DNA of 33,904 nucleotides from a virus (lineage: Duplodnaviria; Heunggongvirae; Uroviricota; Caudoviricetes). Position 1 is the stretch's first letter, and the number at the start of each line of letters is the position of its first letter. Below the pieces are notes generated by a model. That model was not told where the DNA came from. It ran no database searches and saw only the letters and a program-made list of their open reading frames with translations. Shown piece by piece: positions 28,206 to 33,904 of the stretch. The position numbers and the translations under genes are program-made. Location of the stretch: IMG/VR virus record IMGVR_UViG_2541047875_000010, positions 1 through 33,904 of that record. The stretch is one strand, 5' to 3'.

Positions 28206-28628
28206 ATGTTCCTGAAAACCGAATCATTTGAATATAACGGCGTGAGCGTCACGCTTTCTGAACTGTCAGCCCTGCAGCGTATTGAGCATCTCGCCCTGAT
28301 GAAACGGCAGGCAGAACAGGCGGAGTCAGACAGCAACCGGACGTTTACTGTGGAAGACGTCATCAGAACCGGTGCTTTTCTGGTGGCGATGTCCCTGTGG
28401 CATAACCATCCGCAGAAGACAAAGCTGCCTTCCATGAATGAAGCCGTTAAGCAGATTGAGCAGGAAGTGCTTACCACCTGGCCCACAGAGGCAATTTCTC
28501 ATGCTGAAAACGTGGTGTACCGGCTGTCCGGTATGTATGAGTTTGTGGTGAATGATGCCCCTGAACAGGCAGAGGACGCCGGTCCTGCAGAGCCTGTTTC
28601 TGCGGGAAAGTGTTCGACGGTGAGCTGA
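28206..28628 (+). CDS. G: tail assembly chaperone G
   Basis: MFLKTESFEYNGVSVTLSELSALQRIEHLALMKRQAEQ... matches lambda gpG. Confidence 0.9.
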   Translation: MFLKTESFEYNGVSVTLSELSALQRIEHLALMKRQAEQAESDSNRTFTVEDVIRTGAFLVAMSLWHNHPQKTKLPSMNEAVKQIEQEVLTTWPTEAISHAENVVYRLSGMYEFVVNDAPEQAEDAGPAEPVSAGKCSTVS

Positions 28629-29044
28629 GTTTTGCCCTGAAACTGGCGCGTGAGATGGGGCGACCCGACTGGCGCGCCATGCTTGCCGGGATGTCATCCA
28701 CGGAGTATGCCGACTGGCACCGCTTTTACAGTACCCATTATTTTCATGATGTTCTGCTGGATATGCACTTTTCCGGGCTGACGTACACCGTGCTCAGCCT
28801 GTTTTTCAGCGATCCGGATATGCATCCGCTGGATTTCAGTCTGCTGAACCGGCGCGAGGCTGACGAAGAGCCTGAAGATGATGTGCTGATGCAGAAAGCG
28901 GCAGGGCTTGCCGGAGGCGTCCGCTTTGGCCCGGACGGGAATGAAGTTCTCCCTACTTCCCCGGATGTGGCGGACATGACGGAGGATGACGTAATGCTGA
29001 TGACAGTATCAGAAGGGATCGCAGGAGGAGTCCGGTATGGCTGA
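28206..29044 (+). CDS. T: tail assembly protein G-T fusion (programmed -1 ribosomal frameshift)
   Basis: Slippery heptamer GGGAAAG at 28604-28610 near the end of G; the -1 frame continues as the T-like ORF (28610-29044). Confidence 0.7.
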
Positions 29045-31598
29045 ACCGGTAGGCGATCTGGTCGTTGATTTAAGTCTGGATGCGGCCAGATTTGACGAGC
29101 AGATGGCCAGAGTCAGGCGTCATTTTTCCGGTATAGAAAGTGATGCGAAAAAAACGGCGGCAGCCGTTGAACAGTCTATGAACCGGCAGGCGCTGGCTGC
29201 ACAGAAAGCGGGGATTTCTGTCGGGCAGTATAAAGCCGCCATGCGTATGCTGCCTGCGCAGTTCACCGACGTGGCCACACAGCTTGCCGGCGGGCAGAAC
29301 CCGTGGCTCATCCTGCTGCAACAGGGTGGTCAGGTGAAGGACTCTTTCGGCGGGATGATCCCCATGTTCAGGGGGCTTGCCGGTGCGATCACCCTGCCAA
29401 TGGTCGGTGTCACCTCGCTGGCGGTGGCGACCGGTGCGCTGGCGTATGCCTGGTATCAGGGTGACTCAACCCTGTCCAGTTTCAACAAAACGCTGGTCCT
29501 TTCCGGTAATCAGGCGGGGCTGACGGCAGATCGTATGCTGGTCCTGTCCAGAGCCGGACAGGCGGCAGGGCTGACGTTTAACCAGACCAGCGAGTCTCTG
29601 ACGGCGCTGGTAAATGCCGGTGTGCGTGGTGGTGAGCAGTTTGAGGCGATCAGTCAGAGTGTGGCGCGTTTCTCCTCTGCATCCGGCGTGGAGGTGGACA
29701 AGGTCGCTGAAGCCTTCGGGAAGCTGACCACAGACCCGACGTCGGGTCTGACGGCGATGGCGCGCCAGTTCCATAACGTGACGGCGGAGCAGATTGCGTA
29801 TGTTGCTCAGTTGCAGCGTTCCGGCGATGAAGCCGGGGCATTGCAGGCGGCGAACGAGGCCGCAACGAAAGGGTTTGATGACCAGACCCGCCGCCTGAAA
29901 GAGAACATGGGCACACTGGAGACCTGGGCAGACAGGACAGCACGGGCATTCAAATCCATGTGGGATGCGGTGCTGGATATTGGTCGTCCTGATACCGCGC
30001 AGGAGATGCTGATTAAGGCAGAGGCTGCGTTTAAGAAAGCAGACGACATCTGGAATCTGCGCAAGGATGATTATTTTGTTAACGATGAAGCGCGGGCGCG
30101 TTACTGGGATGATCGTGAAAAGGCCCGTCTTGCGCTTGAAGCCGCCCGAAAGAAGGCTGAGCAGCAGACTCAACAGGACAAAAATGCGCAGCAGCAGAGC
30201 GATACCGAAGCGTCACGGCTGAAATATACCGAAGAGGCGCAGAAGGCTTACGAACGGCTGCAGACGCCGCTGGAGAAATATACCGCCCGTCAGGAAGAAC
30301 TGAACAAGGCACTGAAAGACGGGAAAATCCTGCAGGCAGATTACAACACGCTGATGGCGGCGGCGAAAAAGGACTATGAAGCAAAGCTGAAAAAGCCGAA
30401 ACAGTCCGGCGTGAAGGTGTCTGCGGGCGATCGTCAGGAAGACAGTGCTCATGCCGCCCTGCTGACGCTTCAGGCAGAACTCCGGACGCTGGAGAAGCAT
30501 GCCGGAGCGAATGAGAAAATCAGCCAGCAGCGCCGGGATTTGTGGAAGGCGGAGAGTCAGTTCGCGGTACTGGAGGAGGCGGCACAACGTCGCCAGCTGT
30601 CCGCACAGGAGAAATCCCTGCTGGCGCATAAAGATGAGACGCTGGAGTACAAACGCCAGCTGGCTGCACTTGGCGATAAGGTCACGTATCAGGAGCGCCT
30701 GAATGCGCTGGCGCAGCAGGCGGATAAATTCGCACAGCAGCAACGGGCAAAACGGGCCGCTATTGATGCGAAAAGCCGGGGGCTGACTGACCGTCAGGCA
30801 GAACGGGAAGCCACGGAACAGCGCCTGAAGGAACAGTATGGCGATAATCCGCTGGCGCTGAATAACGTCATGTCAGAGCAGAAAAAGACCTGGGCGGCTG
30901 AAGACCAGCTTCGCGGGAGCTGGATGGCAGGCATCAGGTCCGGCTGGAGCGAGTGGAAAGAGAGTGCCACGGACAGTATGTCGCAGGTTAAAAGTGCTGC
31001 CACGCAGACCTTTGATGGTATTGCGCAGAATATGGCAGCGATGCTGACCGGCAGTGAACAGAACTGGCGCAGTTTCACCCGTTCCGTGCTGTCCATGATG
31101 ACAGAAATTCTGCTTAAGCAGGCAATGGTGGGGATTGTCGGGAGTATCGGCAGCGCCATTGGCGGCGCTGCCAGTAGTGGCGCATCGGCCTCAACCGGCA
31201 CAGCCATTCAGGCGGCAGCGGCAAACTTCCATTTTGCGACCGGAGGATTTACGGGAACCGGTGGCAAATATGAGCCAGCGGGGATTGTTCACCGGGGTGA
31301 ATTTGTTTTCACGAAGGAGGCAACCAGCCGGATTGGCGTGGGGAATCTCTACCGGCTGATGCGCGGCTATGCCACCGGCGGTTATGTCGGTACACCGGGC
31401 AGCATGGCGGAGAGCCGGTCGCAGGCGTCCGGGAAGTTTGAGCAGAATAACCATGTGGTGATTAACAACAACGGCACGAACGGGCAGATAGGTCCGGCTG
31501 CTCTGAAGGCGGTGTATGACATGGCCCGCAAGGGTGCCCGTGATGAAATTCAGACGCAGATGCGCGATGGTGGCCTGTTCTCCGGAGGTGGACGATGA
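29037..31598 (+). CDS. H: tail tape-measure protein H
   Basis: 853-aa translation matches lambda gpH as recalled. Confidence 0.95.
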   Translation: MAEPVGDLVVDLSLDAARFDEQMARVRRHFSGIESDAKKTAAAVEQSMNRQALAAQKAGISVGQYKAAMRMLPAQFTDVATQLAGGQNPWLILLQQGGQVKDSFGGMIPMFRGLAGAITLPMVGVTSLAVATGALAYAWYQGDSTLSSFNKTLVLSGNQAGLTADRMLVLSRAGQAAGLTFNQTSESLTALVNAGVRGGEQFEAISQSVARFSSASGVEVDKVAEAFGKLTTDPTSGLTAMARQFHNVTAEQIAYVAQLQRSGDEAGALQAANEAATKGFDDQTRRLKENMGTLETWADRTARAFKSMWDAVLDIGRPDTAQEMLIKAEAAFKKADDIWNLRKDDYFVNDEARARYWDDREKARLALEAARKKAEQQTQQDKNAQQQSDTEASRLKYTEEAQKAYERLQTPLEKYTARQEELNKALKDGKILQADYNTLMAAAKKDYEAKLKKPKQSGVKVSAGDRQEDSAHAALLTLQAELRTLEKHAGANEKISQQRRDLWKAESQFAVLEEAAQRRQLSAQEKSLLAHKDETLEYKRQLAALGDKVTYQERLNALAQQADKFAQQQRAKRAAIDAKSRGLTDRQAEREATEQRLKEQYGDNPLALNNVMSEQKKTWAAEDQLRGSWMAGIRSGWSEWKESATDSMSQVKSAATQTFDGIAQNMAAMLTGSEQNWRSFTRSVLSMMTEILLKQAMVGIVGSIGSAIGGAASSGASASTGTAIQAAAANFHFATGGFTGTGGKYEPAGIVHRGEFVFTKEATSRIGVGNLYRLMRGYATGGYVGTPGSMAESRSQASGKFEQNNHVVINNNGTNGQIGPAALKAVYDMARKGARDEIQTQMRDGGLFSGGGR

Positions 31599-31924
31599 AG
31601 ACCTTCCGCTGGAAAGTGAAACCCGGTATGGATGCGGCTTCGGCTCCTTCCGTCAGGGAAGTGCGCTTTGGTGATGGTTACTCCCAGCGCTCGCCTGCCG
31701 GGCTGAATGCCGACCTGAAAACGTACAGCGTGACGCTCTCTGTCTCACGCGAGGAGGCCACGGCGCTGGAGTCGTTTCTGGCTGAACACGGGGGCTGGAA
31801 GGCCTTTCTGTGGACGCCGCCTTATGGCTACCGGCAGATAAAGGTGACCTGCGCAAAGTGGACAGCGCGGGTCAGCATGCTTCGTGTTGAGTTCAGCGCA
31901 GAGTTTAAACAGGTGGTGAACTGA
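31595..31924 (+). CDS. M: tail tip protein M
   Basis: 109-aa translation matches lambda gpM as recalled. Confidence 0.9.
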   Translation: MKTFRWKVKPGMDAASAPSVREVRFGDGYSQRSPAGLNADLKTYSVTLSVSREEATALESFLAEHGGWKAFLWTPPYGYRQIKVTCAKWTARVSMLRVEFSAEFKQVVN

Positions 31925-32622
31925 TGCAGGATATCCGACAGGAAACACTGAATGAATGCACCCGTGCGGAGCAGTCGGCCAGCGTGGTGCTCTGGGAAAT
32001 CGATCTGACAGAGGTCGGTGGAGAACGTTATTTTTTCTGTAATGAGCAGAACGAAAAAGGCAAGTCGGTTATCTGGCAGGGGAGAGAGTATCAGGCGTAT
32101 CCCATTCAGGGGAGTGGTTTTGAACGGAATGGCAAAGGTGCCAGTACGCGGCCCACGCTGGCAGTCTCTAACCTGTACGGCATGGTCACCGGTATGGTGG
32201 AAGATATGCAGAGTCTGGTCGGCGGAACGGTGGTCCGGCGCAAGGTCTACGCCCGTTTTCTGGATGCGGTGAACTTCATCAACGGAAACAGCGACGCCGA
32301 TCCGGAGCAGGAGGTGATCAGCCGCTGGCGCATTGAGCAGTGCAGCGAACTGAGCGCGGTGAGCGCCTCTTTTGTACTGGCCACGCCGACGGAAACGGAT
32401 GGCGCTGTTTTCCCGGGGCGTGTCATGCTGGCCAACACCTGCACCTGGACCTATCGCGGTGATGAGTGCGGTTATGATGGTCCGGCTGTCGCGGATGAAT
32501 ATGACCAGCCGACGTCCGATATCACGAAGGATAAATGCAGCAAATGCCTGAGTGGCTGTAAGTTTCGCAATAACGTCGGCAACTTTGGCGGCTACCTTTC
32601 CATTAACAAACTTTCGCAGTAA
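31924..32622 (+). CDS. L: tail tip protein L (Cys cluster)
   Basis: 232-aa translation matches lambda gpL, including the C-terminal cysteine cluster (CTWTYRGDECGYDG...CSKCLSGC). Confidence 0.9.
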   Translation: MQDIRQETLNECTRAEQSASVVLWEIDLTEVGGERYFFCNEQNEKGKSVIWQGREYQAYPIQGSGFERNGKGASTRPTLAVSNLYGMVTGMVEDMQSLVGGTVVRRKVYARFLDAVNFINGNSDADPEQEVISRWRIEQCSELSAVSASFVLATPTETDGAVFPGRVMLANTCTWTYRGDECGYDGPAVADEYDQPTSDITKDKCSKCLSGCKFRNNVGNFGGYLSINKLSQ

Positions 32623-32627
32623 ATCCC

Positions 32628-33371
32628 ATGACAGAGACAGAATCAGCGATTCTGGCGCACGCCCGGCGATGTGCGCCAGCGGAGTCGTGCGGCTTCGTGG
32701 TGAGAACGCCGGAGGGGGAAAGGTATCTTCCCTGCGTGAATATCTCCGGTGAGCCGGAGGCGTATTTCCGGATGGCTCCGGAAGACTGGCTGCAGGCAGA
32801 GATGCAGGGTGAGATTGTGGCGCTGGTCCACAGCCATCCCGGTGGACTGCCCTGGCTGAGTGAGGCTGACCGGCGGCTGCAGGTGCAGAGTGATTTGCCG
32901 TGGTGGCTGGTCTGCCGGGGGGCGATTCACAGGTTCCGCTGTGTGCCGCATCTTACCGGGCGGCGCTTTGAGCACGGGGTGACGGACTGTTACACGCTGT
33001 TCCGGGATGCTTACCATCTGGCGGGAATTGAGATGCCGGATTTTCATCGTGAGGATGACTGGTGGCGTAACGGTCAGAATCTCTATCTGGATAACCTTGA
33101 AAGACATGGTTTTTACCGTGTCGCACTGACAGAGGCACAGCCGGGCGATGTGCTGCTGTGCTGCTTTGGTTCATCGGTGCCGAATCATGCCGCCATTTAC
33201 TGCGGCGACGGTGAGCTGCTGCACCATATTCCTGAACAACTGAGTAAACGAGAGAGGTACACCGACAAATGGCAGCGACGCACACACTCCCTCTGGCGTC
33301 ACCGGGCATGGCACGCATCTGCCTTTACGGGGATTTGCAGCGATTTGGCCGCCGCATCGACCTTCGTGTGA
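32628..33371 (+). CDS. K: tail tip assembly protein K (JAB/MPN and NlpC/P60-like domains)
   Basis: N-terminal HSHPGG (JAB/MPN-like) and C-terminal Cys/His residues; lambda gpK-like; the 3' end overlaps I and may be shorter than the track ORF. Confidence 0.85.
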   Translation: MTETESAILAHARRCAPAESCGFVVRTPEGERYLPCVNISGEPEAYFRMAPEDWLQAEMQGEIVALVHSHPGGLPWLSEADRRLQVQSDLPWWLVCRGAIHRFRCVPHLTGRRFEHGVTDCYTLFRDAYHLAGIEMPDFHREDDWWRNGQNLYLDNLERHGFYRVALTEAQPGDVLLCCFGSSVPNHAAIYCGDGELLHHIPEQLSKRERYTDKWQRRTHSLWRHRAWHASAFTGICSDLAAASTFV

Positions 33372-33904
33372 AAACGGGGGCCGAAGCCATCCGGGCGCTG
33401 GTCACACAGCTTCCCGCCTTTCGTCAGAAACTGAACGACGGCTGGTATCAGGTACGCATTTCCGGACAGGATATATCCCATGAAACATTGTTCACACAGA
33501 TGAATGACACACTGCCTCCGGGCGCGGTAATACATATTGTCCCTCGCCTGGAGGGGGCAAAAAACGGAGGGGTTTTTCAGGTCGTGGCCGGTGCTGTGCT
33601 TGCTGTTGTCGGTTATGCATTAAGCTGGACAGGCATAGGTGCGGTTATTGGCAACCTTGGTGTGGCCATGATGCTTGGAGGGGTGGCACAGATGCTGGCC
33701 CCTAAATCCAGAACTCCCCGTACACAGACAACGGATAACGGCAAACAGAATACCTATTTTTCATCACTGGATAACATGATTGCCCAGGGGAATGTTCTGC
33801 CTGTTCTGTACGGTGAAATGCGCGTGGGGTCACGCGTGGTTTCTCAGGAGATCAGCACGGCAGACGAAGGGGACGGTGGTCAGGTTGTGGTGATTGGTCG
33901 CTGA
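33269..33904 (+). CDS. I: tail tip assembly protein I
   Basis: MAATHTLPLASPGMARICLYGDLQRFGRRIDLRVKTGAEAIRAL... matches lambda gpI; stop codon coincides with the window end. Confidence 0.85.
   Translation: MAATHTLPLASPGMARICLYGDLQRFGRRIDLRVKTGAEAIRALVTQLPAFRQKLNDGWYQVRISGQDISHETLFTQMNDTLPPGAVIHIVPRLEGAKNGGVFQVVAGAVLAVVGYALSWTGIGAVIGNLGVAMMLGGVAQMLAPKSRTPRTQTTDNGKQNTYFSSLDNMIAQGNVLPVLYGEMRVGSRVVSQEISTADEGDGGQVVVIGR

Follow-up and report, generated by a model that had tools for sequence, protein, structure and literature searches.

A very probable lambda-type G/GT programmed −1 ribosomal frameshift signal in a lambdoid Escherichia coli prophage or phage

Introduction

A frameshift in the tail assembly chaperone genes was reportedly found by Xu, Hendrix and Duda (2004) to be conserved in the long-tailed dsDNA phages. 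The closest described system is that of bacteriophage lambda, in which genes G and T are connected by a programmed −1 frameshift, for which both PMC5009743 and PMC3296357 cite Levin, Hendrix and Casjens (1993). The slippery site of lambda G/GT is GGGAAAG, divided into codons as G_GGA_AAG (PMC3296357, Table 1; PMC7618472). Few heptamers are more prone to shifting in E. coli than this one (PMC5009743, PMC6924986), and the best shift tetramer is A_AA.G (PMC4066793). About 96% of the ribosomes at the lambda G site remain in the 0 frame (PMC3296357). Shifting depends on the thiolation of U34 in tRNA-Lys (PMC3296357), and the hypomodification of this position results in more shifting and a lower phage yield (PMC3296357; PMC7618472). 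The products, gpG and gpGT, are both absent from the lambda virion, and a ratio of about 30:1 between them is required (PMC5009743). The GGGAAAG heptamer is also used by phage TP901-1, in which mutagenesis showed the same chaperone-ratio logic (PMC4493119).

We analyzed a stretch of DNA of 33,904 nucleotides from a virus of the Caudoviricetes (IMG/VR record IMGVR_UViG_2541047875_000010), referred to below as the window, with a focus on a GGGAAAG heptamer in a pair of overlapping G- and T-like reading frames. We consider this site, with a probability of about 0.96, to direct programmed −1 ribosomal frameshifting of the lambda G/GT type in a lambdoid prophage or phage of E. coli.

Results

Organization of the element and of its tail genes

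The two parts of the window differ in their relationship to lambda. Positions 18500–33904 are collinear with lambda 1–15444, with 96% identity. The early and lysis half of the element (positions 1–18500) is a mosaic lambdoid region unlike that of lambda, its best match being to mEp460-like phages, with a coverage of 53% only. The genes of this half encode a cI-like repressor, a replication protein, a KilA-N protein, a DUF968 protein, the antiterminator Q and a lysozyme. Genes arranged in this way would be expected in a prophage or a permuted record.

Several other features were recorded in the window. The lambda-collinear part opens with a cos-like sequence, GGGCGGCGACCG, at positions 18500–18511, with one mismatch with respect to the lambda cohesive-end sequence used as the query. 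Just past the Q antiterminator gene (12808–13191), there is a match to the Rfam family STnc100, an sRNA (129 bits, 13963–14165), and a tRNA-Met(CAT) gene identified with ARAGORN (14269–14344) also lies just downstream of Q. The ORF at 13775–14197 is probably not a gene, because it overlaps STnc100 and has no Pfam match. Among the minus-strand genes of the early region, a plus-strand ORF of 387 aa (5577–6740), for which no Pfam match was obtained, overlaps the minus-strand ORF 5403–6143.

V, the major tail gene, lies upstream of the overlapping G and T ORFs, and H, the tape-measure gene, lies downstream of them (Table 1). The genes further upstream were recognized with Pfam as Z (Minor_tail_Z) and U (Phage_tail_U), giving the order Z-U-V-G-T-H, which is the lambda order. 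Residues 1–125 of gpG correspond to Phage_TAC_2 (PF06894; E = 9.8e-58, 193.9 bits, versus a cut-off of 27), a family described in Pfam as 'Bacteriophage lambda tail assembly chaperone, protein G'. Residues 164–239 of the fusion correspond to Phage_tail_T (PF06223; E = 6.8e-14, 52.5 bits, versus a cut-off of 25.9). The start of V was set by collinearity with V of phage 434 and lambda. The first 8 nt of H are shared with the end of T, and the two Pfam matches of the H product had E values of 1.3e-70 (TMP_2) and 6.4e-21 (Tape_meas_lam_C). A phmmer search with the GT fusion against PDB sequences yielded no match at E ≤ 0.01. The original prediction had taken the tail assembly chaperone module to be intact. 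At the sequence level, this holds for Z, U, V, G, T and H; M, L and K are represented only by ORFs that follow one another as expected, I is truncated at the end of the window and J lies outside it.

Table 1. Features of the G–T region and of its neighbors (positions in the window)
Feature	Coordinates	Strand	Basis
Gene V, major tail tube protein, upstream neighbor	27450..28190	+	Pfam Phage_TTP_12 (E = 2.9e-69) and Big_2
Gene G, tail assembly chaperone gpG, 140 aa, 0-frame product	28206..28628	+	ORF and Pfam
gpGT fusion CDS, 279 aa, join(28206..28610, 28610..29044)	28206..29044	+	Conceptual translation, length match with lambda
Slippery heptamer G_GGA_AAG (very probable −1 programmed ribosomal frameshift site)	28604..28610	+	Phase check, identity with lambda and 434, relatives
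T segment, −1 frame, 144 codons + TGA, C-terminal part of gpGT	28610..29044	+	Pfam
Predicted two-tier GC-rich RNA hairpin, from 7 nt 3′ of the heptamer	28618..28688	+	MFE fold of 90 nt
Outer stem of the hairpin	28618-28625 with 28681-28688	+	Predicted
0-frame G stop TGA, which shifted ribosomes would pass	28626..28628	+	Within the conserved T codons GAG-CTG-A (Glu-Leu)
Inner GC stem of the hairpin	28645-28651 with 28672-28678	+	Predicted
Gene H, tape measure protein, 853 aa, downstream neighbor	29037..31598	+	Pfam TMP_2 and Tape_meas_lam_C

Position and phase of the slippery heptamer

The heptamer that the original prediction had placed at the 3′ end of G, at 28604–28610, lies at exactly these coordinates, on the plus strand. 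Its first base is the third codon position of the G ORF, resulting in the canonical X_XXY_YYZ phasing, with Ala-Gly-Lys encoded in the 0 frame, and it is the only in-phase XXXYYYZ heptamer within G. The 0 frame reads ...GCG GGA AAG TGT TCG ACG GTG AGC TGA at the 3′ end of G, so that the G stop is separated from the end of the heptamer by 15 nt, or five codons (CSTVS). The −1 frame is open from position 28565, immediately after a TGA, and contains no ATG, GTG or TTG upstream of the heptamer. From the heptamer, it continues for 146 codons, ending at the TGA at 29042–29044, and the predicted T-like ORF in the −1 frame of G is thus present, with its Phage_tail_T match. The +1 frame is shut within a few codons of the heptamer.

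GGGAAAG is not enriched in the window (seven copies, versus 4.95 ± 2.04 expected), and at least seven copies were found in 22 of 100 shuffled windows. The bare heptamer count therefore carries no signal, and our case is built on the phase of the site, its position and its conservation. Both strands were searched for in-phase XXXYYYZ sites in open frames of 100 codons or more, which yielded 63 sites. Only one of these sites, that at 28604, combines an A_AAG end, a distance of no more than 15 nt to the 0-frame stop and a long −1 extension. Four further sites have a long −1 extension, with other end bases and with the stop of their own frame 69–270 nt away; one of them, at 19956, is itself in an alternative frame within the long ORF 19209–21134. 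A second in-phase A_AAG heptamer, A_AAA_AAG, was noted at 12466–12472, inside the DUF968/HNH-like ORF 11810–12805. It is most likely incidental; the stop is 330 nt away and the −1 frame is open for 26 codons only.

Comparison with lambda, phage 434 and E. coli genomes

The 839-nt G–T region aligned without gaps with that of lambda (NC_001416, 9711–10549), with 24 differences and a nucleotide identity of 97.1%. None of the substitutions falls in the site. The differences closest to the heptamer are located at positions 28586 and 28675, and identity with lambda is unbroken over the heptamer itself, the 17 nt preceding it and the 64 nt following it. The heptamer, its phase, the 15-nt distance to the stop, the lengths of the products (140 and 279 aa) and the gene order are all the same as for G/G-T of lambda. 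The differences within G and T are mostly synonymous or conservative, with eight amino-acid changes in G and two more in T (10 in GT), and they introduce no stops or indels. The likeness to lambda on which the prediction was based is therefore literal, with a gap-free alignment and identical site and flanks, and neither the disrupted site nor the interrupted T that it had named as counter-evidence was found.

The alignment with phage 434 (OL657226) is also gap-free, with 98.0% identity over the G–T region and an identical heptamer. The record for this phage annotates, at the homologous coordinates, a two-piece joined CDS designated 'gene GT tape measure protein chaperone frameshift product'. 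The 839 nt were found to be 100% identical in three complete E. coli chromosomes (A24, FDAARGOS_1295 and FDAARGOS_1267), and a homologous G–T region is present in 3,708 of the 5,426 complete E. coli genomes in RefSeq, with a median of two copies.

Conservation of the site in close and diverged relatives

When IMG/VR was scanned with an alignment of the T domain, a relative was found to be encoded by at least 581 viral contigs. Among the best 80 of these, the site could be anchored in 72 loci, all of which have an intact heptamer, an unchanged stop spacing and the full 146-codon extension. These 80 loci are 98–99% identical and are therefore of no use for the analysis of covariation.

A comparative test was performed on nine lineages, including lambda and 434, by aligning the 3′ end of G and the start of T; the diverged relatives added were PhiR12_4, Stx1_9793, ASU11, N15, Klebsiella phage Kp4865-4, mEp213 and LLS. 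The lineages are largely unalignable upstream of the site, and the T frame is strongly conserved downstream of it, with amino-acid conservation in this frame starting at the heptamer itself. An in-phase heptamer ending in A_AAG is found at the same aligned position in all nine lineages. Its sequence is G_GGA_AAG in lambda, 434 and PhiR12_4, A_AAA_AAG in Stx1_9793 and ASU11, and G_GAA_AAG in N15, Kp4865-4, mEp213 and LLS, such that A_AAG is the only part of the heptamer that is invariant. This invariance in the sequences compared fits slippage of tRNA-Lys as the putative core event. The records for N15 (genes 14/15) and LLS annotate G_GAA_AAG as a −1 frameshift site at the homologous position. 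The relatives with other heptamers (G_GAA_AAG, A_AAA_AAG) also differ from the locus studied here in having diverged C-termini of G. In some relatives, the T domain is shorter (113–117 codons), lacking the C-terminal ~30 residues of lambda T.

The 0-frame stop lies 15 nt past the heptamer in eight of the nine lineages, and 3 nt past it in Kp4865-4; the −1 extension ranges from 115 to 154 codons. The fixed 15-nt spacing can be accounted for by the position of the TGA inside the conserved T-frame Glu-Leu codons (GAG-CTG-A).

Candidate RNA stimulators

The signals of dnaX and IS911 carry a 5′ Shine-Dalgarno (SD)-like stimulator, whereas no conserved one was found at the G–T site: a search for an SD-like element upstream of the heptamer (about 10–14 nt, within 25 nt) identified none that was conserved among the lineages compared. 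The best anti-SD pairing in these 25 nt ranged from −3.1 to −6.7 kcal/mol, at positions that were inconsistent among lineages.

A 3′ RNA stimulator, in the form of a stable hairpin or pseudoknot 5–9 nt past the heptamer that is backed by covariation, is a feature of the dnaX, IS911 and IS3 family signals. At the G–T site, a hairpin is predicted from 7 nt past the heptamer, with one compensatory pair (Table 1). The 90 nt past the heptamer have an MFE of −40.6 kcal/mol (z = −3.05), placing them in the top 1.3% of the 3,043 sense-strand segments of 90 nt from positions 18600–33904 (2% after adjustment for GC content), and about a dozen further sites in the structural region have equally stable folds. 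In seven diverged sequences, pairing is retained in 95.5% of cells (RNAalifold, pair counting). Fourteen of the 22 pairs of the hairpin are invariant, in a highly conserved coding segment, and a compensatory change was observed in one pair only, probably corresponding to a single event. Pairwise codon identity at positions with invariant residues is about 0.73 for T codons 1–28, versus about 0.59 later in T. This difference is small, and no other part of the protein is as conserved as this segment; we therefore treat the hairpin as unproven. Levin et al. (1993) are said to have observed at most a modest effect of downstream sequence. A search of Rfam at gathering thresholds, or at E ≤ 10 over positions 28500–28800, yielded no family at or near the site. 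No 3′ stimulator for lambda G–T is named in the papers covered by the analysis.

Discussion

Because the site and its flanks are identical to those of lambda, we infer the events at this locus from the lambda literature, and the occurrence of the shift, its efficiency, the tRNAs involved and the functions of the proteins described here are those that the lambda experiments would predict. Most of the ribosomes translating G would stop at the TGA and release the 140-aa gpG. About 4% of them, if the lambda figure applies, would slip back by one base when the P site holds GGA and the A site AAG. The tRNA-Gly would re-pair with GGG and the tRNA-Lys (anticodon mnm5s2UUU) with AAA, so that Gly-Lys would be read in both frames. 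After the slip, reading would continue as GTG TTC GAC... in the T frame, past the G stop, giving rise to the 279-aa gpGT, with the predicted junction peptide ...PVSAGKVFDGELSF... (also written as ...AEPVSAGKVFDGELSFALK). By analogy with lambda, gpG and the G part of gpGT would coat the tape-measure protein gpH, and the T part would recruit the major tail protein gpV, allowing the tube to polymerize around gpH. The efficiency of the shift would then set the gpG:gpGT ratio at roughly 30:1, as needed for correct tails.

The predicted hairpin, which is preserved from lambda to N15-like and Klebsiella phages, is the only element of this locus with residual novelty. It might tune the efficiency of the G–T shift, and hence the gpG:gpGT ratio, but we consider such a role unlikely. 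If it does so, the sequence conservation of this segment would reflect dual selection, on RNA as well as on protein.

The ORF listing contains a 144-codon ORF beginning at the GTG at 28610, with GGGA a short distance upstream, and T is annotated as a separate GTG-start CDS both in NC_001416 and in the 100% identical prophage of E. coli A24 (RefSeq/PGAP), as would be expected if T were an independent gene and the heptamer incidental. This possibility is nevertheless very improbable. The GTG, which starts at position +6 of the heptamer, is specific to the lambda type and missing from seven of the nine lineages, in which GTC, GCA or GCC is found instead, and the first ATGs common to all lineages lie 75–87 nt downstream, past the most conserved segment of T (ELxFxLxLARExGRPDWR). 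Upstream of the GTG, the best SD-like pairing is a weak one (−4.0 kcal/mol), directly adjoining this codon and too close for normal spacing. What is conserved instead is the position and phase of the heptamer ending in A_AAG, and the T sequence has been reported to be expressed as gpGT (PMC5009743, PMC3296357). The separate T CDS is an annotation convention rather than evidence.

Two further explanations are even less probable, and we give them almost no weight. The window resembles an integrated or permuted lambdoid element, many prophages are defective and the number of heptamers does not exceed that expected by chance, all of which would be compatible with a fortuitous heptamer in a decaying prophage in which G and T have survived only as relics, the functional frameshift having been lost. 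However, G, T, Z, U, V and H are all complete, their comparison with lambda reveals neither stops nor indels, and the site is retained in 72/72 close relatives and 9/9 diverged lineages. A −1 product at a homopolymeric run could also be generated by transcriptional slippage, through the stuttering of RNA polymerase on the run of A residues rather than through the ribosome, and there are six A residues in a row in the relatives with A_AAA_AAG. The runs at 28604 are nonetheless short, with three A and three G residues, and productive transcriptional slippage requires far longer runs. The conserved feature, moreover, is the X_XXY_YYZ codon phase, which is relevant to ribosomes and not to RNA polymerase. 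The level of gpGT responds to the modification of tRNA-Lys (PMC3296357), and PMC5009743 explicitly sets ribosomal frameshifting at lambda GT against transcriptional slippage. The lambda-type programmed ribosomal frameshift remains our preferred reading.

Since the GTG is not conserved in relatives, the stand-alone T model is an annotation artefact. In the A24 prophage and lambda records, T is annotated as a stand-alone CDS, with no slippage join (L090, 1605–2039; L002, 1216–1650). RefSeq/PGAP splits a prophage copy identical to that studied here, and 3,708 of 5,426 complete E. coli genomes carry the region, indicating that mis-annotation is widespread; many of the E. coli genomes with this region, which number in the thousands, are probably affected by the artefact. 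The correct gene model consists of G and a joined G-T CDS produced by ribosomal slippage, with no free-standing T.

The original prediction rightly considered the site to be expected rather than novel: it is the already-known lambda G–T frameshift site, in an ordinary and very common lambdoid element of E. coli. It adds nothing new biologically, this being one of the best-studied recoding signals of bacteriophages. Its importance is confined to annotation, and it shows that the G–T chaperone pair of the element is intact.
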